Shown here in pieces: positions 43,727 through 61,976 of a stretch of 64,000 nt of DNA. The stretch is from an uncultured Acidobacteriota bacterium. GTDB taxonomy: Bacteria > Acidobacteriota > Thermoanaerobaculia > Multivoradales > JAHEKO01. Position 1 is the stretch's first letter. Every line of letters starts with the position of its first letter. The notes under the pieces are model-generated. The model saw nothing but the letters and a program-made list of their open reading frames with translations. It was not told the DNA's origin and ran no database searches. The position numbers and the translations under genes were made by a program. Location: positions 864,001 to 928,000 of the forward strand of contig CAVQNG010000025.1 of NCBI GenBank assembly GCA_963713825.1. Reading direction: 5' to 3'.

Positions 43727-43753
43727 AACGACCGGAAGGCAAATTGGTTAACA
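43727..43753 (-). promoter_or_regulatory. Putative ECF-sigma autoregulatory promoter
   Basis: The minus strand reads TGTTAAC-N16-CGTT (AAC...CGT ECF consensus), about 70 nt upstream of the first gene of the ECF operon. Confidence 0.55.
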
Positions 43754-43827
43754 GCCCTGCCGGGATCTTGTCATCCCATGTGCAGTCCTCAACTGCTACA
43801 GAGCTCGAGAAGCCCCAGAATACTTGG

Positions 43828-46287
43828 GTGTTCGACTCCGTGCACATAATGTCCCTGTGTTCGGCTCTCGTCGCGGGGCTGAACCTCCTGCTGGGCGCCT
43901 ACATCATCCTGCGGAATCGTCGGGAGCGTCTGAATCAGATCTTCTTCCTTATCAGCGTCTGCTTCGCGATGTGGTCTTTCGCCTTCGCCTTCTGGCCCTC
44001 GGCCCCCACCAAGGAGTACGCCTGGTTCTGGTTTCGTCTCTCTGCGATTGGGTGGACCCTCACCCCTTCTCTCCTTCTGCACTTCCTGATCCTTATCTCA
44101 CGCCGGGATCACGTGCTGCAGAGCCGGTGGAGCTACCCGGTGATCTACCTGCCGGGTATCTATTTCTTCCTGCAAGCGCAGTTCGGTCGTATGGGGGTCG
44201 TTGACTTCGTGCAGACGCCCTTTGGCTGGTCGGATGTTTACCAGCCGATGACCTTCAGCTTTGCCGGTTACTTGATCTACTTCTCGCTCTACATCTGCAT
44301 TGGGATGGTCTTGGTGCTGCTGTGGGGATTGCGGACCGAGAGAGTCGCGGAGCGCCGCCAGTCCCAGATCCTTTTGATCATGGGCCTGCCGGTTCTGGTC
44401 GTCGTAGCGCTGTCGGGCATCTTTCTGCCCATGTGGGGCATCCGAAGACCGCCCGAGGTAGCACATCTGGTAGCCGCTCTCTGGGTGCTCAGTATCTGGT
44501 TCGCGGTCTTGCGCTACCGACTGATGATCCTGAGTCCGGCAATCGTCGCGCCAGACATCTTCCGGACCATGGCCGATGCGGCCGTACTGGTCGACCTCGA
44601 AAACCAGGTCGTTGGCCTGAATCGATCCGCCGAGGACCTGCTCGGCGCCAAGGAGCAACAGCTCAGAGGTTCGGCGGTCGAAGGGCTGTTCGAGACTGCA
44701 GACTCGACGGAGTCAGAGACCATACGCCGGCTGATCGCCAGCTCCGAGGGACGCACGATGGAGCTCAACATGCGACGGCGGTCAGGAGATACAGCGACCT
44801 TGAGAGTCTCCGTCTCCAAAGTGAGGGATCGGTTCGCGCAACCCCTGGGGACGGTTCTCCTGATGCGGGACATCAGCGACCAGAAGCGAGCCGAAGCCGA
44901 CTTGAAGTACTTGACGACGCACGACCCCTTGACCGACCTGCCCAATCGGTCGTTGCTCAGCGATCGCTTGAAGAGGGCTCTGCAGAGGGCGATTCGGGAG
45001 AAGCACCCCTTTGCCCTCCTGATGTTCGATCTCGACGATTTCAGGCGGATCAACGACGCCTATGGTCCGCAGAGTGGAGACCTCGTGCTGCAGGAGGCTG
45101 CTCGTCGCCTCAACCGCTCTGTGCGCGGCTTGGACACCGTGTGTCGGCTCGGCGGAGACGAGTTCATGATCGTGGTCGAAGACCTGCTCGAATCGGGTGA
45201 CTCCGACATCGTTGCGCAGCGCATTCTGGATTCGTTCGCAGAGCCGATCGAGGCCGAGGAGCGGTCGATCACCGTTACCGGCTCGATTGGCATCAGCACC
45301 TATCCGTTCGACGGCCTCGACACGGAGACCCTGGTCAAGAAGGCGGACCTGGCGCTCACCAGCTCGAAGCAGCGGGGCAGGGGCGGCTATCAGTACTACG
45401 CACCTCGCATGGATGCCATGAACCGTCAGCGGGTGGCCATCGAGCAAGGACTTCAAGAAGCGATCGCAGCAGACGAGTTCTACCTCGTCTACCAACCTTT
45501 GGTGGATTTCTCTTCCGGCAAGATCGCAGGAATCGAGGCCCTGATCCGCTGGCAGTCGAGAGACCTGGGTTTGATGAGTCCGCTGAGCTTCATTCCGATT
45601 GCGGAGAGATCAGGGTTGATCGTGCCGATTGGGGAGTGGGTCCTGAGAACCGCCTGCGCAGCCAACCGCCAGTGGCAGGACGAAGGGTTCCCGGCAGTTC
45701 CCATCGGCGTCAATATCTCGGCCCGGCAGCTCCAGGAGCCGAATTTCGTCGAGATGGTGGAGACGGTGCTGCAGGAGACCGGCTTGAGGCCAGAGCTCCT
45801 CGAGCTCGAGCTCACCGAGAGTACTGCCATGGAGGATGTTTCTCGATCCCAGGCGCTGCTGACGCAACTGCAGGAGGGTGGGGTCCAGATCGTCATCGAC
45901 GATTTCGGCACCGGCTACTCGTCCCTCATGCGACTCAAGCTGCTACCCATGGACACGGTAAAGGTCGATCGCTCCTTCATCGAGAACATCGCCAGGGATC
46001 CAAAGGACCGAGCATTGGTGATGGCGATTGTCGCCATGGCTCGCAACCTGGGTGTCAAAGTGGTGGCCGAAGGCGTCGAGACGATGGAGCAGCTCGAGGT
46101 GCTGCGTTCCTTCGAGACCCAGCCGCTCGCCGTGCTGCGCTGCGACAAGGTGCAGGGGAACCTCTTCAGCACGCCCGTCGGGACCGAGGGTGTGCCGTCG
46201 CTCTTCGATCTCGCCGCGGATGACGACGGCCCGTTCGAGAGCATTCGGCGAGTAGTCGCCCATAGGTCGAGAGCCCTCCGTCAGTAG
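43828..46287 (+). CDS. 7TM (HisKA_7TM-like) + PAS + GGDEF + EAL diguanylate cyclase/phosphodiesterase
   Basis: Seven TM, PAS, HDPLTDLPNR, RGLD I-site, GGDEF, EALIRW, DDFGTGYSS, AEGVE. Start lies between 43744 and 43849. Confidence 0.94.
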   Translation: MFDSVHIMSLCSALVAGLNLLLGAYIILRNRRERLNQIFFLISVCFAMWSFAFAFWPSAPTKEYAWFWFRLSAIGWTLTPSLLLHFLILISRRDHVLQSRWSYPVIYLPGIYFFLQAQFGRMGVVDFVQTPFGWSDVYQPMTFSFAGYLIYFSLYICIGMVLVLLWGLRTERVAERRQSQILLIMGLPVLVVVALSGIFLPMWGIRRPPEVAHLVAALWVLSIWFAVLRYRLMILSPAIVAPDIFRTMADAAVLVDLENQVVGLNRSAEDLLGAKEQQLRGSAVEGLFETADSTESETIRRLIASSEGRTMELNMRRRSGDTATLRVSVSKVRDRFAQPLGTVLLMRDISDQKRAEADLKYLTTHDPLTDLPNRSLLSDRLKRALQRAIREKHPFALLMFDLDDFRRINDAYGPQSGDLVLQEAARRLNRSVRGLDTVCRLGGDEFMIVVEDLLESGDSDIVAQRILDSFAEPIEAEERSITVTGSIGISTYPFDGLDTETLVKKADLALTSSKQRGRGGYQYYAPRMDAMNRQRVAIEQGLQEAIAADEFYLVYQPLVDFSSGKIAGIEALIRWQSRDLGLMSPLSFIPIAERSGLIVPIGEWVLRTACAANRQWQDEGFPAVPIGVNISARQLQEPNFVEMVETVLQETGLRPELLELELTESTAMEDVSRSQALLTQLQEGGVQIVIDDFGTGYSSLMRLKLLPMDTVKVDRSFIENIARDPKDRALVMAIVAMARNLGVKVVAEGVETMEQLEVLRSFETQPLAVLRCDKVQGNLFSTPVGTEGVPSLFDLAADDDGPFESIRRVVAHRSRALRQ

Positions 46288-51349: not shown

Positions 51350-53017
51350 ATGACCTCCGGACTCGACAGGGAAACTCTCGAACTCAGTTTGGAGGCCTTT
51401 CGCGATTTCGCAGCGGCAAAGCTGTCGGACGACGTGCTTCTCGACCTGGATGCTCGGGACGAGTTTCCTGTGGACCTGGTTCGCGAGCTCTGTGGGTCGG
51501 GTTTGGGTATTCAATTGCTGTTCATCGACGAGGAGTACGGTGGTATGGGTGGCGGAGCCTTCGATGTCTACCGGATCTGCGAGGCGCTTGCAGAGGTGGA
51601 CCTGGGGATCGCTACCGGGGTCCTGGCAACCTTTCTCGGTAGCGATCCGATTCGCTTCGGCGGCTCCGAGGAACAGAAGAAACACTGGCTCGGACGAATT
51701 GCCGAGGAGGGACTTCTCTTTGCCTACTGTGCTACCGAGCCGGAGGCGGGAAGCGATCTTGGCGCCCTCAAGTCGACCGCCGAGAGGATCGAGAAGGACG
51801 GCGAGGTTGTCGGCTACTCGATCAGCGGCAGCAAGCAGTGGATCAGCAACGGCGGCTTTGCGGATGTCTATACCGTGCTCGCCACCGCGCCCGACGGGCC
51901 GAGCTGGTTCATCGTCGAAGCCGGTGCCGAAGGCTTGAGCCCTGGCCAGCCGGAGGACAAGCACGGAATTCGCGCCAGCAATACCGCCGCAGTCGGTCTG
52001 ACCGACGTCAAGGTCGATGCCGATCGACTCGTTGGTGGCAAGGAGGGGCAAGGGCTTCTCCAGGCGCAGGCAGTGTTCGGCTACACACGACTGATGGTCG
52101 CCGCGTTCGGCCTGGGTGGTGGATGGGCGGCTCTCGATCGCGCGATTCCCTATTCCACTGAGAGAATCCAGGGTGGCAGCCCGCTTTCAGAGAAGCAGGG
52201 TTTCACCCACAAGTTGATCGTGCCCAACGTGGCGTGGCTCGAAGCCGGTCGTGCCTACATCGAAGAGACCGCGCGACGGATCGACAGTGGAGAAGGAACT
52301 CTCAATACCGAAGGGGCCATTGCCAAGTACCTTTCGAGCGAAGCCGGCCTGAAGGCAGCGGAGGCCAGTATCCAGGCCCTGGGTGGCTATGGCTACACCC
52401 GCGAGTACATGGTGGAGAAGATCCGGCGCGATGTGCGCATCACGACGATCTACGAGGGCACTTCCGAGATTCTGGAGATGACCATCGCGCGGGATCTCTG
52501 GCAGCTCCACCTCAAAACGCGGGGCGAGCATTTCCACGAGCGGGCGCGCACATTCGAGACCTTGCACTCGAGGCACCCGAACCTGGGCGCTGACATCGTG
52601 GCTTTGACGTTTCATGCTCTGGCCGAGGTCATGGAGCGATCGCGAGTGGCGCGATTGACAAGGAACCAGCACCTGCTGCTCCGGTTGGGCGAGCTGATCG
52701 CTTACGCGGAAGGGGCTGCGGGCCTGGTCGGCAGGGCGGCTGAGTCGGCGGAGGGTGCGCTCGACTCGAAAGCCGATCGCCGCATGAATCATGAGACCCT
52801 GGCGATCCTCGGTCGGATCTGTGCGCGACAAGCCGCCTCGATGGTGGCATCCCAGGGGATCCAATGGGTCGTCGGCGCTGGCGGAGTCGCTGGGCCGGCC
52901 GGCGTCGGGGACCTCGAAGCCGCGTTGGACGTGGCTCGAATACACCAGGCTCAGGCAGGCCTGATGGAAGATCTGAATCTGGCGGCCGATCGGATCTACG
53001 ATCGCCAGACCGCATGA
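51350..53017 (+). CDS. Acyl-CoA dehydrogenase with C-terminal helical extension, first gene of the PKS cluster
   Basis: EEYGGMG, TEPEAGSD, GSKQWISNG, KHGIRAS, LGGYGY, catalytic IYEGT. Confidence 0.93.
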   Translation: MTSGLDRETLELSLEAFRDFAAAKLSDDVLLDLDARDEFPVDLVRELCGSGLGIQLLFIDEEYGGMGGGAFDVYRICEALAEVDLGIATGVLATFLGSDPIRFGGSEEQKKHWLGRIAEEGLLFAYCATEPEAGSDLGALKSTAERIEKDGEVVGYSISGSKQWISNGGFADVYTVLATAPDGPSWFIVEAGAEGLSPGQPEDKHGIRASNTAAVGLTDVKVDADRLVGGKEGQGLLQAQAVFGYTRLMVAAFGLGGGWAALDRAIPYSTERIQGGSPLSEKQGFTHKLIVPNVAWLEAGRAYIEETARRIDSGEGTLNTEGAIAKYLSSEAGLKAAEASIQALGGYGYTREYMVEKIRRDVRITTIYEGTSEILEMTIARDLWQLHLKTRGEHFHERARTFETLHSRHPNLGADIVALTFHALAEVMERSRVARLTRNQHLLLRLGELIAYAEGAAGLVGRAAESAEGALDSKADRRMNHETLAILGRICARQAASMVASQGIQWVVGAGGVAGPAGVGDLEAALDVARIHQAQAGLMEDLNLAADRIYDRQTA

Positions 53018-53116
53018 TGCCGAGTCGAGCCTCCTCCGGGCAAAGTAGAGTCGGGGGTCGATGAAGTTCCCGCCACCGGGTCGGACCTGGGGCGTGACGG
53101 AAGGAAAGAACGCGAG

Positions 53117-56100
53117 ATGAAGAACAGCAGACATCGGGCAGTCGCCATCGTTGGTGTCGGGGCGGTGCTTCCGGATGCGCCGGACGCTCCGACCTTCTGG
53201 GAGAACATCAAACAGAGTCGGTACAGCATCAGTGAGGTTCCCAAAGAACGGTGGGATCCAGAGCTGTTCTGGGATCCCGACCCCAAGGCGCCGGCGAAGA
53301 CCTACTCGAAGATCGGCGGCTGGGTGAAGGAGTGGGCCTGGGAGCCGCTGAAGTGGAATCTGCCAATCCCACCGAGAGTGGGCGAGTCCATGGATCGGAC
53401 CCAGAAGTGGGCCCTGGTGGGCGCTCGCGAGGCATTGGCAGACTATGGGTATCCGCAGCGCCCCCTGGACCGTGAACGGACAGCCGTGATCCTGGGCAAC
53501 GCCATGGGCGGCGACCTTCACTACGAGACGGCCACCCGTATCTCCTATCCCGAGATCGCCCAGGAGCTGCGGCGAGCGCCGAGTTTCGCGGCGCTGCCGG
53601 AGGAAGTCCGGGCCAAGGTCAGCGACGAGCTCGGCAGCCAGGTGAGTGAGCTCTATCCCCGGATCACCGAAGACACGATGCCAGGAGAGCTGGCGAACAT
53701 CATTGCCGGCCGGATTGCCAATCTGTTCGACTTTCATGGACCGAACTACGTGGTCGATGCGGCCTGCGCTTCCGCCATGGCAGCGATTCACGCCGCCATC
53801 GAGGGGCTCGAGGAAGAGGACTACGACGCCGTTCTGACGGGTGGAATCGACGCCAACATGAGCGCCGCTACGTATACCAAGTTCTGCAAGATCGGCGCCC
53901 TTTCCGCGACCGGGACCCGGCCGTTCGCCGATGGCGCCGATGGCTTCGTCATGGGCGAAGGAGCGGCCATCTTCTTGTTGAAGCGGCTGCGCGATGCCGA
54001 GCGGGACGGTGACTCCATCTATGCCGTGATTCGCGGTCTGGGCGGATCGAGTGATGGCCGGGGCAAGGGGATCACGGCGCCCAATCCGGTCGGTCAACGA
54101 TTGGCGGTGGAGAGAGCCTGGAGACGGGCTGGACTGGTTCCAGATGGGGCCACGCTCATCGAAGGGCACGGCACTTCGACACGGGTCGGAGACGTAGTGG
54201 AGCTGCAGTGTCTGACCGAGGCATTCATCCCCTACGGATTTGCACCCGGCTCGCTGCCTCTCGGCTCGGTCAAGTCGAACATCGGCCACCTCAAGGGCGC
54301 GGCCGGTGCGGCTGGGATTCTGAAGGCGACCTATGCCTTGCGGGACCAGGTCCTACCTCCGAGCCTCGGTTTCGAGCGCCCCAATCCCAATATCGACTTC
54401 ACGAGCTGCCCATTCTTCGTCAATACGAAGCTGCGGCCCTGGACGGCTCGAGAAGGACAGGTGAGGCGGGCTGGCGTCAGTGCTTTCGGCTTTGGTGGAA
54501 CCAACTTCCATGCGATTCTGGAGGAGTACGTTCCCGGCCAGATTGTCGACCGGCCAGAACCTGTCCTTACCGTGGCCCGAGAGTTTGGTTCATCGGCTGT
54601 CACGAAGAGCGAAAAGGTGCCGCTGCGGGGCGCCCTGGTCCTGGGCGGTGATTCCCTGGCCGATGTCGAGGTCAGACTCAAAGGTGTGCTCGCCAAGGCA
54701 GAGTCTGGAGAGCTGCCGCAAGTCCAGGCACCAGCTGAAGCGGACCTGCGAAGCACCACCCGGTTGGCAATCGACTACGGTGACGGCGCTGAGTTGATCA
54801 AGAAAGGCGGCAGGGCGCTGTCGACGATCGAGTCGGGCAAGCTCGAGACCTGGAAGGCGCTCCGGGGTCGAGGCATCTTCCTTGGAACGGGCCAGCCGCC
54901 CAAGGTCGCCATGCTCTTTACGGGTCAGGGATCGCAGTATCTCAACATGCTGAGACAGCTGGCCTCGGACGAGCCGGTGGTGACCGAGACCTTTCGCGAG
55001 GCCGACGAGGTCATGAAGCCGCTGCTCGGCCGCCCTCTGACCGAGTACCTGTTCGTCGACCCCATGGGTCCGCTCGAAGAAGAGGCCGCCAATGATGCGC
55101 TGCGCCAGACAGCCATCACCCAACCGGCGGTGCTGGCGACGGACATAGCTCTGTTGAGGCTCCTGGGTACCTATGGTGTCGTGCCAGACATGGTGATGGG
55201 CCACAGCCTCGGTGAGTACGGCGCACTGGTGGCTTCGGGGGCGATCAGCTTCGCTCACGCCCTGGAGGCCGTCAGTGCCCGTGGGCAGGAGATGAGCCGG
55301 ATCTCGACGGACGACAACGGCTGGATGGCCGCGGTCTTCGCCCCCTTGGAGGAGATCGAGCGCATTCTCTCGACGATCGAGGGCTACGTCGTTGTGGCCA
55401 ATATCAACAGCTATAGCGAAGCGGTCATCGGCGGCGCCAGCCAGGCCGTCGAGAGGGCCATCGAGGCGCTGCAAGCGGCTGGGTACCAGGCTCAGCGACT
55501 ACCGGTGAGCCACGCTTTTCACACGCAGATCGTGGCTCCATCCAGCGCCGCAGTTCGGCAGGTGTTGGGAAGGATGGGACTGCAGCCGCCGGAGATTCCC
55601 GTTGTCGCCAACGTCAGCGGCGACTTCTACCCGATGGGACCGGGAGTCGAGCCCGAGATGATCGAAATTCTCGCCCGTCAGGTCGCCGAACCCGTGCAGT
55701 TCGTCAAGGGATTGGAGGCTCTGTACCGTGCCGGCACGAGGGTGTTTGTCGAGTGTGGCCCGAAACGGGCCCTGCAAGGCATGGTTCGAAGCGTCTTTCA
55801 AGAGCGCGACGACGCCGTTTCCCTGTCCACGAATCATCCGCGCATGGGTGACGTGGCCTCCTTCAACCAGGCCCTGTGCGGACTGTACTCGGCAGGGCTG
55901 GGTGTCGGCAGGGTTCCTGTTGCCGAGGAGCCCATCGTCATGCGGAGCCCGGTCGGGTCGCGGCCCGCCCTGGCCGTGGACTCCGAGATCGAGTCGATTC
56001 AGGCACCGGCCGATGCGGCAGGTGTCGACGCCTCTCGTCTCGACAAGGCCGCCTACCTCGAGTTGGGACAGATGTTCGCCGGTTTCCTCGACAAAGGCCT

Positions 56101-59100
56101 CGAAGTGGTGGGCCGCAAGAGCGCGCCCACAACCTCCGAGCGCGGGGTCGTGATTACAGGTGCGGCCATCGGATTGCCGGGTACCGCGAAGGTGTTCGAC
56201 GACTCGAATCTGGGACGACTCTTGACGGGCCAGCAGTTCATCGGAGAGGTACCGGACGATCTGCGACAGGAGATGGTGGCGAGGAACATCACGAGACTGG
56301 TGAAGAGCGAGAACGGTGGCCCGAGATTCGAGACCATCGAGGGCGTCGATGAGGTGATCAAGCTGGCGGCGCGCCGAGGGGAATTGGATCTGGTCGAAGA
56401 GTTCGGCTTCCCGAGCGACCGCCTGGAAGCGCTGGACGTGGTGACCGAGTTGGCCATCGGATCGGGACTCGACGCCCTCCGGGATGCTGGACTACCGCTC
56501 GTCAGGCGCTACAAAACCACGACGACTGGCAGCAAGCTCCCTGACCAATGGGGCCTGGCCGACGAGGTGCGCGACGAAACCGGCGTGATCTTCGCGTCCG
56601 CCTTCCCGGGCGTCAACTATTTCGCCAGGGAGTCGGGTCGTTACTACACCGCGCAGGCCGCCCAACGACGCCTCGAGGAGCTGCAGAGTCTGAAAGACCG
56701 GATGAGCTCGAGCGGAACGGTTTCCGATGAGTCCATGAGCGAGTTGGATCGGCATCTGGACGAGGCGCGAGAAGAAGTCGAGGCCAGCCCCTACACCTTC
56801 GATCGACGATTCCTCTTCAGACTCTTGTCGATGGGCCACTCCCAGATGGCCGAGTTCATCGGCGCCCGGGGGCCGAACACACAGATCAACGCAGCCTGTG
56901 CCAGTGGTACACAGGCCATCGGTTTGGCCTCGGACTGGATCCGCGCTGGTCGTTGCCGTCGAGTCGTGATCGTCTCGGCGGACGACGTGACGAGCGACGA
57001 TTTGATGGGCTGGATCGGAGCCGGCTTCCTGGCCACGGGTGCGGCGGCTACCGATGCCGAGGTCGAGGAGGCCGCCATCCCGTTCGATCGGCGTCGTCAC
57101 GGCATGCTGATCGGCATGGGGGCGGCGGCAATCGTCGTGGAAAGCGAGGAGTCGGCAAGCGAGAGAGGGATTCAGCCCATCTGCGAGGTGCTGGCGACCG
57201 CCACGGCCAACAGCGCCTATCACGGCACCCGTCTCGATGTTGCCCATATCTCCGAGACGATGGAACGGCTCATTACCGAGGCCGAAAAGAAATGGGGTAT
57301 CGATCGATCTCAGATCGCTCCGGAGACGGTCTTTATCTCCCATGAAACCTACACACCTGCCAGGGGTGGCAGTGCGCAGGCCGAGATCTTTGCCCTCCGA
57401 AGTGTCTTCGGAGAGCTGGCTGACAAAATTGTCATAGCGAACACCAAGGGCTATACGGGACATCCGATGGGAGTGGGAATCGAGGACGTCCTGGCCATCA
57501 AGGCCCTGGAGACCGGTTTGGTACCTCCGGTGGCCAACTTCAAGGAAGTCGACCCGGAGCTCGGAGAGCTCAATCTGTCCCGTGGTGGCAGCTACCCGGT
57601 GCGCTATGCGCTGCGGCTGGCCGCCGGATTCGGATCGCAGATCAGCATGGTATTGCTCCGATGGGTCCCCGCCCCGGGTGGCCAACGCCCGGAGATCGAC
57701 CAGCTGGGCTACGACTATCGTCGCGTCGAGCCAGAGAGATGGCGGCAATGGTTGGACTGGGCCAGCGGTCATCCAGGTGCCGAAGTCGAAGTCGAGCACC
57801 GGACTCTGCGGATCAGAGACGAGGGGCCGCCGAGCCAGGTCCTGCCTCGGCCAGTGGCAAACCAGGAGCACCCCGCAGCTCCACCTGCCGATTTCAGCCG
57901 TCCTGCCCAGGTCGCATCTGAGCAGGAGCCGACGGCGGCAGCCGGCCAAGATCCATCCGAGCCGTCGCCGCAGCCCATCCGGCCTTCGACTGCTTCGGTG
58001 GCTCCACCTCCAACCCCTGTTGGTGGCTTGGATCCCATCCAGAAACGCGTCTTGGAGATCGTGGCGGCGACGACTGGCTATCCGGAAGAGATGTTGGACC
58101 TGGATCTGGACATGGAGGCCGATCTGGGGATCGACACGGTGAAGCAGGCGGAGATGTTCGCGGCGATCCGCGAGGAGTGGGACATCCCGCGTGACGATAC
58201 GTTGCAGCTGCGGGACTACCCGACATTGGCCCGAGCGATTCAGTTCGTCTTCGACCGACGGCCCGACCTGAAGGGCCAGGAGGTGATAGCTGCAGCTGCG
58301 GCCCCTGCAGCCGTCGAGAGCCAGGCGGAATCTGCGTCCGACGACGCGGTCCATCCCGTTCAAAAGCGAGTTCTGGAGATCGTCGCGGCGACGACTGGCT
58401 ATCCGGAAGAGATGTTGGATCTGGATCTGGACATGGAGGCCGATCTGGGGATCGACACGGTGAAGCAGGCGGAGATGTTCGCGGCGATCCGCGAGGAGTG
58501 GGACATTCCGCGTGACGACACGTTGCAGCTGCGGGACTACCCGACATTGGCCCGAGCGATTCAGTTCGTCTTCGACCGACGGCCTGATCTCGCTCCGGGA
58601 GCGACCGCAGATGCTTCCGCCAGTGCTCCCGAGACTCCGGTTCCTGGGACTGAAGAAGAGCACACTCGGGAAATACCTACTGCCGCGACTTCGGTGCACC
58701 GCAGGGTGCCGGCCGTGATGCTGTTACCCGCTCTCGACCTCTGCAAGAGGACCGGCGTCCGATTGCAGAAGGGCTCGCGTGTGGTTGTCATGGCGGACAG
58801 GGGTGGTGTCGGCAAGGCCCTGGAGCAGCGACTCGAACGATTGGGTGCCGAGGTTCTCCTCCTGGAGGCCAACCTCGATGCCGAGGAGGTCGTGCCTCGT
58901 CTCGAGGAGTGGAAGAGGGATGGCGAGGTGCAGGGGATGTACTGGCTTCCCGCGCTCGATGCGTCTGGAGATGCATCCAGCTCCGTGCCCGAGGAGTGGC
59001 AGGCGGGCCTGACGCGCCGGGTCAAGTTGTTGTTCCAGGTTGCAAAGGTGCTGTACGACTCCTTGAATCGAGCCGATTCGTTCCTGGTTGCCGGCACCCG

Positions 59101-61172
59101 CCTGGGAGGTCGGCACGGCTACGATGAAGCTGGGGCTTGGGCCCCACTCGGAGGCGGAGTCTGCGGCTTCACCAAGGCCCTCAAGAGGGAAAGGCCAGCG
59201 TCGCTCATCAAGGTCGTCGACTTCGAGCCCTCACGGGCGACCGCGGCTCCGGCCGATCGGCTCATCGAGGAGACTCTGCGGGATCCCGGCTCGGTCGAAG
59301 TGGGTTACTTCGGAGCCGAGCGATGGGGAGTCGGTCTGCGGGAGGAGGCCCTGGAAGAAGCCGCCGAACCTGTCGAGATGGGCGCTGAAAGTGTCTTTGT
59401 TGTCACCGGAGCCGCTGGCAGCATCGTTTCGGCGATCGTGGCGGATCTGGCGCAAGGCTCGCAAGGCATCTTTCATTTGCTGGATCTCGCACCGCCTCCC
59501 GACCCTGAAGAAGAAGACCTGCAGCGATTTCGTTCGGACCCCGAGTCTCTGAGGATGGAGCTCTTCGAGCGCATGAAGGCCGAAGGGGAACGGGCCACCC
59601 CAGCCAAGGTGGAGCGCCAGCTCTCCGTCCTCGAGCGGTCTCGATCGGCTCTGGAAGCCATAGAGTCCGTGGAGGCTGTCGGTGGGCAGGCGCACTACCA
59701 CTCGGTTGACCTGCTCGACGCCGAGGCGGTGACTCGAGTTATCGACGAGGTGCGCGAGCGCCATGGCAGGATCGACTTCCTCATCCACGCCGCCGGCCTC
59801 GAGATCAGCCATGCCCTGAGCGACAAGAGTGCCGAGGAGTTCGACCTCGTTTTCGACGTCAAGAGCCAGGGTTGGTTCCATCTTCTCGAAGCGGCAGCAG
59901 AGATGCCCCTGGGCGCGACGGTTGTGTTCAGCTCCATCGCGGGGCGTTTCGGCAACGCGGGTCAAACGGACTACAGTGCGGCCAACGATTTGCTCTGCAA
60001 ACTCACCTCGAATCTGCGTAGGAGTCGCCCCCAGACGCGCGGTGTGGCGATCGACTGGACCGCCTGGGCTGGAATCGGAATGGCCAGTCGCGGATCGATC
60101 CCGAAAATGATGGAACTGGCCGGGATCGGAATGTTGTCGCCCGAGTCGGCCCTGCCGATCGTCCGGCAGGAGCTCACAGCCGGAACCCGGGGCGAGGTGG
60201 TGATTGCCGAGTCCCTGGGTTTATTGCTGGAGGACTGGGATCCGGAGGGCGGGTTGGACTCCGAAGCCATTCGGTCAAGGCAGCGGGGACCGATGATCGC
60301 CGGCTTCGAATCACGGCAGACGCCACGGGGTCTGGTGGCCGAAGGACTGTTGAGCCCCACTGAGCAGCCGTTCCTCGACGACCATCGGATCGAAGGAACA
60401 GCGGTCTTGCCAGGAGTCATGGGAATCGAGGCCTTTGCCGAGGTCGCCGGTCTTCTGGTGCCTGATCGGCAGGTCACGAGACTCGAGGAGGTGGAGTTCC
60501 TGTCGCCCTTCAAGTTCTATCGGGATGAGCCCCGGGCTGTGGAGGTGTCGGCCTTTCTGGGTCTGGAAGGGGAGGAGGTCGTTGCCGCTTGTCGATTGCT
60601 GGGCCGGCGGCAATTGGCCCTGCAAGCGGAGGAACAGGAAACCGTGCACTTCGTCGGTCGAGCCTGGATGGGAGATCCGTCCCCTGCTGCTGCTTCTATC
60701 CAAGCTCCAGCAGCTCCCCAGGAAGCTCTGCGCGGGTGCGGACATCTATCGCGTCTATTTCCACGGTCCGGCCTACCAGGTACTCGACCTCGCATGGCGA
60801 CAAGAGTCGAGTCTGATCGGCAGGTTGTCAGAAGAGCTTCCTCCGAATCACCTTCCGAAGGAGCGAGCCCTGCAAATGGCTCCGCGCCTCATCGAGCTCT
60901 GTTTTCAGACAGCCGGACTCTGGGAGATTTCACAGAGTGGCAGGCTGGGCCTTCCCTGGAAGGTGGCGTCGGTCAGCGTTCATCGACCCGAAGACGCCGC
61001 TCGGGGTCGCATCTTGGCGGTCGTGCAGCCGGCCTCCGACGGTGGTTTCGATGCCCAGGTCATCGACGAGGCAGGCAATCTACTGGTGGATCTGTCGGGC
61101 TACAGGACCGTCGAGTCTGCAACGGAGGTCGAGCCTGAAGCACTGGCCAAGCTGCGCAGCTTCCTGGGCTAG
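53117..61172 (+). CDS. Type I (PfaA-like iterative) PKS, KS-AT-KS-ACP-ACP-KR-DH; +1 frameshift at about 60735
   Basis: KS1 DAACAS/HGTST/NIGH; AT GQGSQ/GHSLG/HAFH; KS2 NAACAS/SHET/TGHP; two ACPs LGIDTV; KR TGAAGSI/YSAAN; DH HRIEGTAVLPG. The DH second half (YFHGPAYQ, LIELCFQ) continues in the 60435..61172 frame. Confidence 0.92.
58032..58590 (+). repeat. Two near-identical ~235 bp direct repeats (period 321 bp) encoding the tandem ACPs
   Basis: About 58032-58270 and 58353-58590 share long identical DNA runs, e.g. GCGGCGACGACTGGCTATCCGGAAGAGATGTTGGA...TTCGACCGACGGCC. Confidence 0.92.
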
Positions 61173-61190
61173 TTCTTAGAGACGGTCGAG

Positions 61191-61976
61191 ATGAATCCGA
61201 GAGAGGGAGCCCATCACCAGAGGTCGAGTCCTGGCCCCTGGTGGCTGGCGAAGGGTCTCGAAGAGCTTCCCACCAACCTGGATTGGCTGAGCTCGGAAGA
61301 GCACCGACATCTGGCGAGACTCGGGGTCGAGAAGCGGCGCCACGACTGGCTGCTTGGACGCTGGACTGCCAAATCGGCACTCCTGCAAAGCCCTTACTTT
61401 CCGGGCTCCGGCACGGCTCCTGAGGAATTGACCGTCTGGCAGGCCGCAGACGGGGCTCCGGAAGCTCTGTTCCGAGGGCGAGCTCTACCGCTGACTCTCT
61501 CTATCAGCCATCGAAGTGGTCGAGGATTGTGTGTTCTGGCCCCCGAGGCGCTGCTTGTCGGCTGTGACCTCGAGACAGTCGAGGCCCGAAGCCCTGCCTT
61601 CTTGCAGGACTACTTCACGTCCGATGAGCAGGCTGCTCTGCGGGCGGCTCCTGCCAACGGCAGAGATCGAATCGCGACACTGTTCTGGGGGGCGAAGGAG
61701 AGCGCCCTGAAGGCACTGAGGCTAGGGCTGAGAGCCGATACCCGACGGATCCGGGTCGAATTGCCTGCCGAGTCGGGGGCAGACGAGAAATGGTGCAACC
61801 TGGTCGTGCGGGATAGGGAGTCCGATCGGGGGTTCGGAGGGTGGTTTCGGATGCTGGAAGGGCTGACCTTGGTGGTGGTTTCCTCGCCTCCTTCCGAGGC
61901 TCCTGTGTCTCTGGTAGGAAATTCCAGATCTGGCAGCTGGTCAGAGGGCAGGGGGGGAAAAGGTGGCGACCTCTGA
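61191..61976 (+). CDS. Sfp-type 4'-phosphopantetheinyl transferase
   Basis: WLLGRWTAK, DGAP, LSISH, VGCDLE, FWGAKESALKAL; starts 18 nt after the PKS stop. Confidence 0.92.
   Translation: MNPREGAHHQRSSPGPWWLAKGLEELPTNLDWLSSEEHRHLARLGVEKRRHDWLLGRWTAKSALLQSPYFPGSGTAPEELTVWQAADGAPEALFRGRALPLTLSISHRSGRGLCVLAPEALLVGCDLETVEARSPAFLQDYFTSDEQAALRAAPANGRDRIATLFWGAKESALKALRLGLRADTRRIRVELPAESGADEKWCNLVVRDRESDRGFGGWFRMLEGLTLVVVSSPPSEAPVSLVGNSRSGSWSEGRGGKGGDL

Follow-up and report, generated by a model that had tools for sequence, protein, structure and literature searches.

How does a type I lipid synthase that has ketoreductase and dehydratase domains and no enoyl reductase complete its elongation cycle, and what is the role of the acyl-CoA dehydrogenase encoded directly in front of it? 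The question is raised by a 64,000 nt stretch of DNA from an uncultured sediment bacterium of the Acidobacteriota (GenBank assembly GCA_963713825.1, contig CAVQNG010000025.1, positions 864,001 to 928,000), referred to here as the window. Positions 51350-61976 hold a compact plus-strand unit of three genes, for an acyl-CoA dehydrogenase (ACAD), a megasynthase, and a 4'-phosphopantetheinyl transferase (PPTase). An earlier reading of the sequence alone (the sequence-only reading) had described this cluster, and the open reading frames and Pfam domains bear it out:

51350..53017, plus strand: ACAD-family flavoprotein gene, 555 aa (Pfam)
53117..61138, plus strand: megasynthase open reading frame as printed, 2673 aa (open reading frame list)
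53117..61172, plus strand: megasynthase gene, KS1-AT-KS2-ACP-ACP-KR-DH, in two frames in the assembly, with one extra base
61191..61976, plus strand: Sfp-type PPTase gene, 261 aa (Pfam ACPS, E 1.6e-18), starting 18 nt past the synthase stop

New here are the strict linkage of the ACAD gene to the synthase, the partner genes for electron transfer flavoprotein (ETF), an iron-sulphur (FeS) protein, acetyl-CoA carboxylase (ACC) and lipid enzymes, the absence of an enoyl reductase (ER), and carrier domains with threonine. The explanation that we favour, although we hold it tentatively, is by analogy with known flavoproteins: the ACAD may be the fourth enzyme of the elongation cycle, reducing the 2-enoyl thioester in trans with electrons from ETF for an iterative synthase that has no ER.

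The absence of an ER can be seen from the domains of the synthase, which are as follows:

53135..54559, plus strand: KS1, PfaA-type ketosynthase (KS; Pfam, residues 7-481; C217/H351/H391)
54902..55849, plus strand: acyltransferase (AT; Pfam Acyl_transf_1, E 1.6e-41, residues 600-903)
56144..57706, plus strand: KS2, diverged FabF-like ketosynthase (C1261, H1409, K1444, H1449; two-helix insert at ~56612-56791)
58034..58261, plus strand: acyl carrier protein (ACP) domain 1 (Pfam PP-binding), with Thr1674 (nt 58136-58138) at the phosphopantetheine Ser position
58355..58582, plus strand: carrier domain 2 (Pfam PP-binding), with Thr1781 (nt 58457-58459) at the phosphopantetheine Ser position
58694..60106, plus strand: ketoreductase (KR), structural and catalytic halves (Pfam KR, E 8.3e-26, residues 2167-2318)
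60299..60730, plus strand: dehydratase (DH), N-terminal hot-dog (PKS_DH_N, E 5.7e-12, residues 2401-2479)
60731..60733, plus strand: one-base insertion, a frameshift (frame comparison and public contigs)
60735..61172, plus strand: dehydratase, C-terminal hot-dog, in the other frame (Pfam PS-DH, E 5.1e-13)

The KS1 piece alone scores 417 bits against TIGR02813, the NCBIfam model of PfaA, which agrees with the sequence-only reading of KS1 as PfaA-like. That reading's further claims, that both KS domains keep Cys-His-His (C217/H351/H391 in KS1, C1261/H1409/H1449 in KS2), that the AT has an HAFH motif, and that KR and DH are present, hold up in the Pfam scan and residue check. The AT matches FabD (TIGR00128, E 5e-57), with GHSLGE (S697) and HAFH at 799, the latter taken by us to be malonyl-specific. 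The KR has TGAAGS at 2097 and Tyr2286, and the N-terminal hot-dog of the DH has His2423 within HxxxGxxxxP. The Pfam scan of the synthase protein found no ER family and no thioesterase (TE) family, and an ER-type family is likewise absent from the Pfam lists of all 120 homologues listed. The genome of the window, which is 96.4% complete, contains no PfaD-family match and no second multidomain KS gene, so that the pfa partners do not lie elsewhere; the canonical partners of polyunsaturated fatty acid (PUFA) synthases, PfaB, PfaC (KS-CLF, FabA-type DH), and PfaD, are not present in it. The prediction of a synthase without ER, TE, or pfaB/C/D is therefore confirmed by Pfam scan and genome search. 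The whole synthase reaches 906.9 bits against TIGR02813, below the cut-off of 1010.1, the best of three matching stretches being residues 7-911.

By its domain order and gene order the synthase is predicted to be a Type R secondary lipid synthase. In the passages seen of Shulse & Allen 2011 (PLoS One 6:e20146, PMC3098273), Type R has one pfaA homologue, KS-MAT-CLF-ACP(3-6)-KR, followed by a PPTase; it is reported in Koribacter, Solibacter, Elusimicrobium, and Roseiflexus, of the Acidobacteria, Chloroflexi, and Elusimicrobia; its product is given as unknown; and the Koribacter cluster has an ACC gene placed between the synthase gene and that of the PPTase. The window has a single pfaA homologue with KS, MAT, second KS, tandem ACP, and KR, a PPTase gene directly downstream, and no pfaB, pfaC, or pfaD in the cluster, the flanks being unrelated and the genome without a PfaD match. 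The term 'acyl-CoA dehydrogenase' does not occur in the full text of PMC3098273. A literature search for a characterised Type R member, or for a link of one to ACAD or ETF, found none, the passages seen of PMC3908369 and of the preprint 10.1101/2025.10.24.682833 included; those of the latter list only a handful of known secondary lipids.

The KS2 region has at least 3724 homologues (E<=0.001) among 8000 candidates scored, and those listed are 63-88% identical and lie in megasynthases of 2500-3000 aa. Their sources include Thermoanaerobaculia, Acidobacteria, Calditrichaeota, KSB1, Deltaproteobacteria, Nanopelagicales, and Jiangellales. Within the Acidobacteriota the spread is patchy, the synthase being found in 21 of 401 species genomes and 15 of 227 genera, with the window genome counted. 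The sequence-only reading had regarded the architecture as atypical and the synthase as uncharacterised, a view that a match to a characterised synthase would have overturned. The architecture proves not to be new, having been catalogued as Type R in 2011 and having this many KS2 homologues; the match is to a catalogued type and not to a characterised one, and with no PfaD match and no other multidomain KS gene the second part of that view stands.

The gene neighbourhood provides the main evidence that the ACAD belongs with the synthase. Loci were sampled by KS2 (18 genome loci and the best 80 of 428 metagenome loci), and 97 were kept after the distant L018 (28% identity) was dropped. Partner counts cover only those loci with enough DNA to judge, and the position of the ACAD gene was assessable where at least 400 nt of DNA precede KS1. 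An ACAD gene is beside or near the synthase in all 85 assessable loci, and directly upstream in 83 of them; the order in L007 and L095 is ACAD-EtfB-EtfA-(FeS protein, reverse)-synthase. These ACAD homologues are full length, with the C-terminal extension, at 56-92% identity, and the named loci are from Acidobacteriota, Myxococcota, Pseudomonadota, Actinomycetota, and Chloroflexota. In a set of Acidobacteriota genomes, which may overlap the first set of loci, the ACAD gene is directly upstream of the synthase in 15 of 15. Among the loci sampled by KS2, a PPTase homologue is downstream in 33 of the 34 where this could be assessed. The genome survey of the cassette that had been suggested has in this way been run, and the ACAD, often with ETF alongside, is a true partner of the synthase, as claimed.

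Fusions of ACAD and synthase were considered as further evidence of linkage and rejected. There are 13 longer proteins, 11 with both parts, and most of six junctions are out-of-frame or chimeric; P0125 is the only clean-looking in-frame fusion, so fusion evidence counts for little. The 3468-aa open frame in genome G276 was ruled out as a fusion, as it reflects chance openness of a GC-rich frame. Separately, in P0126 and P0127 (the latter representing 14 member sequences) ACAD residues 1-432 are joined to the synthase from ~504, with KS1 missing, a form that may have arisen by chimeric assembly or by true deletion.

In the ACAD of the window the N, M, and C Pfam domains cover residues 10-383, followed by ~170 further C-terminal residues. 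The catalytic Glu369 lies in IYEGT (nt 52454-52456) and is invariant in 20 aligned ACAD sequences, which have a mean column identity of 73% with the extension included. The extension has conserved motifs in this alignment and no Pfam match, neither PF21343 nor PF21263. A structural model (pLDDT 87.8, pTM 0.89) matches over its full length 3owa, 7s7g, 2uxw, 2z1q, and 8phe (TMq 0.75-0.79; human VLCAD and ACAD9 included), whereas MCAD-type enzymes cover the ACAD core only (TMq 0.61-0.64). The Pfam and fold matches agree with the sequence-only reading of an upstream ACAD with an extra helical domain, and by its modelled fold the protein would be of the VLCAD/ACAD9 type with a C-terminal helical domain, a fold that would suit long chains.

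The other neighbours suggest what the ACAD may be connected to. EtfA is present in 43 of 66 loci, and a 4Fe-4S/CCG protein in 33 of 53; the latter has ~5 N-terminal membrane segments and is a putative ETF:quinone-oxidoreductase-type protein. In Acidobacteriota the ETF genes are upstream on the same strand, in Gammaproteobacteria they follow the ACAD, and in Solirubrobacterales they are divergent; linkage in three gene orders argues for a functional tie rather than mere inheritance. Of the 15 Acidobacteriota genomes, 5 have ETF, all in one family. A single-chain carboxylase with BC-BCCP-ACC_central-CT follows the synthase in 39 of 57 loci, while in 16 of 57 the PPTase is directly after the synthase, without the carboxylase. 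In the passages seen of PMC6491548, which are silent on this cluster, a single-chain ACC supplies malonyl-CoA. A wax ester synthase/diacylglycerol acyltransferase (WS/DGAT) is found in 14 of 48 loci, an undercount because the 10-kb flank cuts such genes off, and the WS/DGATs keep HHxxxDG. A PfaD-like NMO gene is present in 2 of 64 loci, beside the ACAD (L006:3441-4877, minus strand; L008:3631-5082), and the two proteins are 484 aa with 74% mutual identity.

The partners are all together in genome G179, in the tight order AdhE-like, WS/DGAT, FeS protein, EtfB, EtfA, ACAD, synthase, ACC, PPTase (L111:5140-15318 and L112:1-10413), where the AdhE-like protein has Aldedh and Fe-ADH domains. A long operon of this kind is also seen at L120, and the AdhE-like and WS/DGAT pair is directly upstream in 2 of the 15 genomes (G179 and G400). 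The gene content of the long operon points to products of the wax-ester type and to a connection with the quinone pool. The cluster of the window is minimal, without ETF, ACC, or WS/DGAT; elsewhere in its genome there are one EtfB/EtfA pair, a homologue of the FeS/CCG protein, a WS/DGAT homologue, parts of a multi-subunit ACC, and a type II fatty acid synthesis (FAS II) cluster, the last on C4.

Two observations concern other lipid genes near these loci. In G280, ~700 nt past the PPTase (L116:5283-8171), there is a gene for a protein of 962 aa that combines AMP-binding, PP-binding, and PlsC-type acyltransferase domains and could be a lipid loader or off-loader. In G179, a few kb upstream of the long operon (L111:1672-3465), there is a second, different ACAD of the VLCAD type, 597 aa, with the Pfam domains Acyl-CoA-dh_C and ACAD9-ACADV_C.

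The neighbours bear on whether the chains are reduced at all. Enediyne-type KS-AT-ACP-KR-DH synthases make polyenes, and a KS-AT-ACP-KR-DH set with a PPTase and no ER or TE, in a genome without PfaD, would be consistent with a conjugated polyene or poorly reduced chain, which the ACAD would tailor or recycle. This seems improbable to us, as the tandem carriers (1-6), the ACC in 39 of 57 loci, and the WS/DGAT and AdhE-like neighbours indicate bulk lipid, and a strictly conserved flavoprotein with its own ETF would be unexpected for tailoring.

If the ACAD is instead the enoyl reductase of the cycle, as we favour, the synthase would use malonyl units to assemble a long acyl chain on carriers of its own and, after KR and DH have acted, the ACAD, running 'backwards', would reduce the enoyl thioester in trans. 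ETF would deliver the electrons, which in the long operons would originate in the quinol pool and pass through the membrane FeS protein; in the window organism ETF, FeS protein, and the WS/DGAT homologue would be supplied from elsewhere in the genome. Chain release is likely to be by acyl transfer, since there is no TE, with WS/DGAT performing it where present, and wax esters or acylglycerols would be the products in the relatives. Reduction of enoyl-CoA by ACAD-family enzymes with ETF is found in Bcd/EtfAB and CarCDE, and Ascaris offers a third precedent for ACAD-type enoyl reduction. In Euglena wax-ester fermentation, according to the passages seen of PMC6587861, ACAD, ETF, and rhodoquinone reduce enoyl-CoA. 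Both the EtfA of the clusters and the only EtfA of the window genome score higher to Bcd/Car/Fix-type ETFs than to the human or Paracoccus ETF (for example, 5ol2_A 1.9e-51 versus 1efv_A 1.3e-35, and 6fah_A 6e-58 versus 1efp_A 6.2e-44), a mild hint in favour of the reductive direction.

A number of points weigh against this explanation. The best match of EtfB is the non-bifurcating ETF of M. methylotrophus, and ranking by PDB match is a weak guide. ACAD, ETF, and a membrane protein of the ETF:quinone type together form the classic oxidative chain of beta-oxidation. The gammaproteobacterial members L007, L011, and L095 presumably use ubiquinone, which we take to be too oxidising for enoyl reduction, and in L006 and L008, which also have the PfaD-like NMO gene, the ACAD is no mere substitute for an absent ER. 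The usual substrates of ACADs are CoA esters, not carrier-bound ones, and the modelled VLCAD-like pocket would be better suited to long chains than to the C4-C10 intermediates formed in de novo synthesis. The window's own cluster lacks ETF, ACC, and WS/DGAT, and the metagenome sample is probably dominated by one acidobacterial lineage, so that the counts are not independent.

Several of these points would suit an ACAD that works in the oxidative direction, introducing a double bond, trans-2 (or gamma,delta), into a primer, intermediate, or finished chain that is saturated. TcsD, for one, makes a gamma,delta double bond. Electrons would then pass to ETF, the membrane FeS protein, and quinone, while any enoyl reduction would be left to the housekeeping FAS II reductase, and the window's own genome does have a FAS II cluster. 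The ACAD, ETF, and membrane FeS/CCG protein that co-occur in these loci are also the components through which bacterial beta-oxidation passes its electrons, as with mycobacterial EtfD, and the probable ubiquinone users among the Gammaproteobacteria and the PfaD-like NMO genes of L006 and L008 also speak for oxidation. However, KR and DH without ER already yield 2-enoyl chains, so a dedicated 2,3-desaturase beside such a synthase would have little to do. That the ACAD is in all assessable loci while ER is absent from all 120 homologues listed, and that the ETFs are nearer to the reductive Bcd/Car type than to the beta-oxidation ETFs, also argue against an oxidative role, which we consider rather unlikely, although it is the main rival to the favoured explanation.

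The second ketosynthase raises a separate question, that of what a further condensing domain between AT and ACP would contribute. When residues 1001-1600 of the synthase are scanned alone, ketoacyl-synt (E 5.4e-15) and Ketoacyl-synt_C (E 9e-6) are found in 1216-1475, and the catalytic residues lie within the motifs SHETYTP and KGYTGHPMG. In an alignment of 13 sequences from five phyla the Cys, both His, and the Lys are invariant, and the mean column identity is 72%. KS2 scores 147 bits against TIGR03150, where the cut-off is 494; its best PDB sequence match is the FabF 4ls6 (E 6e-28), and its model, of moderate quality (pLDDT 71.7), resembles FabF-type folds (Foldseek TMt 0.74-0.80), with the helical insert forming a pair of long helices in the model (fragment residues 157-189 and 195-214). 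Scan, residues, and model all support the sequence-only description of a divergent KS2 with these motifs and a helical insert, and KS2 is a diverged condensing domain of the FabF type with an ordinary triad. Type II CLFs have lost the active-site Cys, and with Cys, both His, and Lys invariant in 13 sequences the label CLF does not fit KS2.

The phylogeny of both KS domains that had been suggested was run as a quick tree of 13 KS1 and 13 KS2 sequences from the loci of this analysis only. KS1 and KS2 form two separate clades with 100* support and long stems; with PfaA, PfaC, and CLF references left out, the tree separates KS1 from KS2 and says nothing on the origin of KS2. Such a separate, very long-branched, highly constrained lineage (72% mean column identity), with a single-chain carboxylase linked in 39 of 57 loci and no TE, might be read as a terminal, head-to-head, or release condensation in the manner of Pks13, the carboxylase making a carboxy-acyl partner. 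This we judge to be very improbable, given the ordinary FabF-type triad and fold of KS2, the ACC_central domain of the carboxylase, presumably the layout of acetyl-CoA carboxylases, and the lack of the carboxylase in the cluster of the window as well as in 18 of 57 loci. In PUFA synthases KS-A and KS-C divide the cycles by chain length, and within the favoured scheme KS2 would be a second working condensing enzyme that shares cycles by chain length in this way, or that accepts FAS II primers.

In both carrier domains of the window, threonine takes the place of the serine of (D/E)LGxDS in PF00550. The DNA of carrier 2 is a 95% direct repeat of carrier 1, and Tandem Repeats Finder reported no array in the carrier region. 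The threonine aligns with the Ser of AcpP from the same genome and with that of the solved carriers PigH 5y08 and Streptomyces ACP 2koo. Among the 120 homologues listed, which have 1-6 carriers per protein in tandem, 347 of the 348 matches to the strict carrier motif have Thr, and in the 97 loci the count for this motif is 271 Thr and 0 Ser. A looser pattern in the 120 homologues gives 364 Thr and 39 others, 6 Ser among them; 20 of these 39 were examined, and all 20 are in linkers or behind KS2, outside the carrier domains. In the passages seen of PMC9456370, E. coli AcpP S36T serves as an inactive variant, and a literature search for natural Thr-linked phosphopantetheine carriers found no paper. 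Either the linked PPTase would load Thr, or the Thr carrier domains would act in another way. By the textbook rule carriers are loaded on Ser, and the invariant Thr at this site puts that rule in question. The joint proposition, that this is a new kind of fatty acid synthase with both quinol-fed VLCAD-like enoyl reduction (through ETF and membrane FeS protein) and phosphopantetheine installed on Thr by the PPTase, is doubtful at present.

The frameshift in the DH raises the question of whether the synthase gene of the window is intact. The final ~130 residues of the printed open reading frame are out of frame and Arg/Gly-rich, and the C-terminal half of the DH sits in the open reading frame 60435-61172, which is 69% identical across 143 aa to the C-terminus of the relative P0007; the need for frame repair that the sequence-only reading had implied is real. 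The site is spanned by contigs of two independent public runs. That of run X2 (771 nt) has one base fewer at 60731 and differs at one other letter, and that of run X1 (1289 nt) has one base fewer at 60733 and differs at 13 other letters; the loss of either base brings the two frames into phase. In run X3 no contig crosses the site. P0005, which is 96% identical across 2181 aa, is unbroken at this site, and in a genome of the same genus the frame stays open for 2623 aa, the match being free of stops. Only the present assembly, then, has the extra base, which is either an assembly error or a very recent change. In P0005 the gene call begins opposite residue 361 of the window protein, inside KS1, and the gene may be separately broken in the P0005 assembly.

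That the assembly and the public gene call both carry the shifted frame would be expected if the synthase were a pseudogene in the source organism, with a real DH frameshift in a decaying cluster. We think there is little chance of this, since the contigs of both independent runs are without the extra base, the 96%-identical relative and the same-genus genome are intact at the site, and the remaining 8-kb frame is open, with 81-96% identity to intact relatives (81% across 2551 aa to P0007). The gene is probably intact in the population. A contig of 423 nt from an RNA run is identical across 59880-60302, a weak hint of synthase transcription.

The immediate neighbours of the cluster are on the opposite strand, with genes for a penicillin amidase, an HD protein, and a PALP enzyme upstream, and an unknown 169-aa open reading frame and a TonB_C protein downstream. 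A promoter and terminator scan of the cluster gave results no better than those for shuffled sequence. Further upstream (43744-46287, plus strand) lies a gene for an 847-aa 7TM-PAS-GGDEF-EAL signalling protein, with no tie to the cluster seen.

The Type R synthase is among the most widespread uncharacterised lipid megasynthases of soil and sediment bacteria, and its neighbourhood partners turn a product listed as unknown since 2011 into a concrete, testable scheme. The window adds one more, minimal member; the interest is in the partnership of the family with the flavoprotein and ETF, and in its Thr carriers. Should the flavoprotein prove to be the reductase, the family would provide the first case of a type I synthase fed by the respiratory chain rather than by NAD(P)H, and the making of wax esters or acylglycerols would serve as an electron sink too, with a bearing on carbon storage and electron disposal in such bacteria when oxygen is scarce. 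It would be a bacterial counterpart of the wax-ester fermentation of Euglena, built on a type I synthase.

Of the known systems, Type R is the closest, with the same domain order of the pfaA homologue, the downstream PPTase, the absence of pfaB/C/D, and hosts in the Acidobacteria and Chloroflexi. The ACC between synthase and PPTase in Koribacter matches the placement of the carboxylase in 39 of 57 loci, whereas the window itself has no ACC. The window synthase has 2 carriers where Type R has 3-6, and the second domain, called CLF in the passages seen of the Type R paper, keeps Cys-His-His in 13 of 13 sequences here. With PfaA of pfaABCDE the synthase shares KS1, AT, tandem carriers, KR, and DH in the PfaA order; it differs in its extra KS2, its Thr carriers, the lack of PfaB, PfaC, and PfaD, and its score below the cut-off. 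FabF (KAS II) is the best sequence and fold match of KS2 and has the same Cys-His-His-Lys set, but KS2 is part of a megasynthase, is longer by ~200 residues on the N-terminal side, the two-helix insert among them, and has HETYT where an HGTGT-type motif is usual.

The ACAD shares its core, its C-terminal helical domain, and the Glu in YEGT with VLCAD/ACAD9 and the bacterial two-part ACADs, although the sequence identity is only 23-28% and its gene is tied to a synthase rather than to beta-oxidation genes. With the Euglena system and the clostridial Bcd/EtfAB and CarCDE (PDB 5ol2, 6fah), the likeness is one of possible working, an ACAD-family flavoprotein together with ETF, and for Euglena it extends, in the relatives of the window locus, to a quinone-linked membrane protein and candidates for the wax-ester synthase and acyl reductase. 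In those systems the substrates are CoA esters and the setting is reversed beta-oxidation or fermentation, whereas the ACAD here would work beside a type I synthase.

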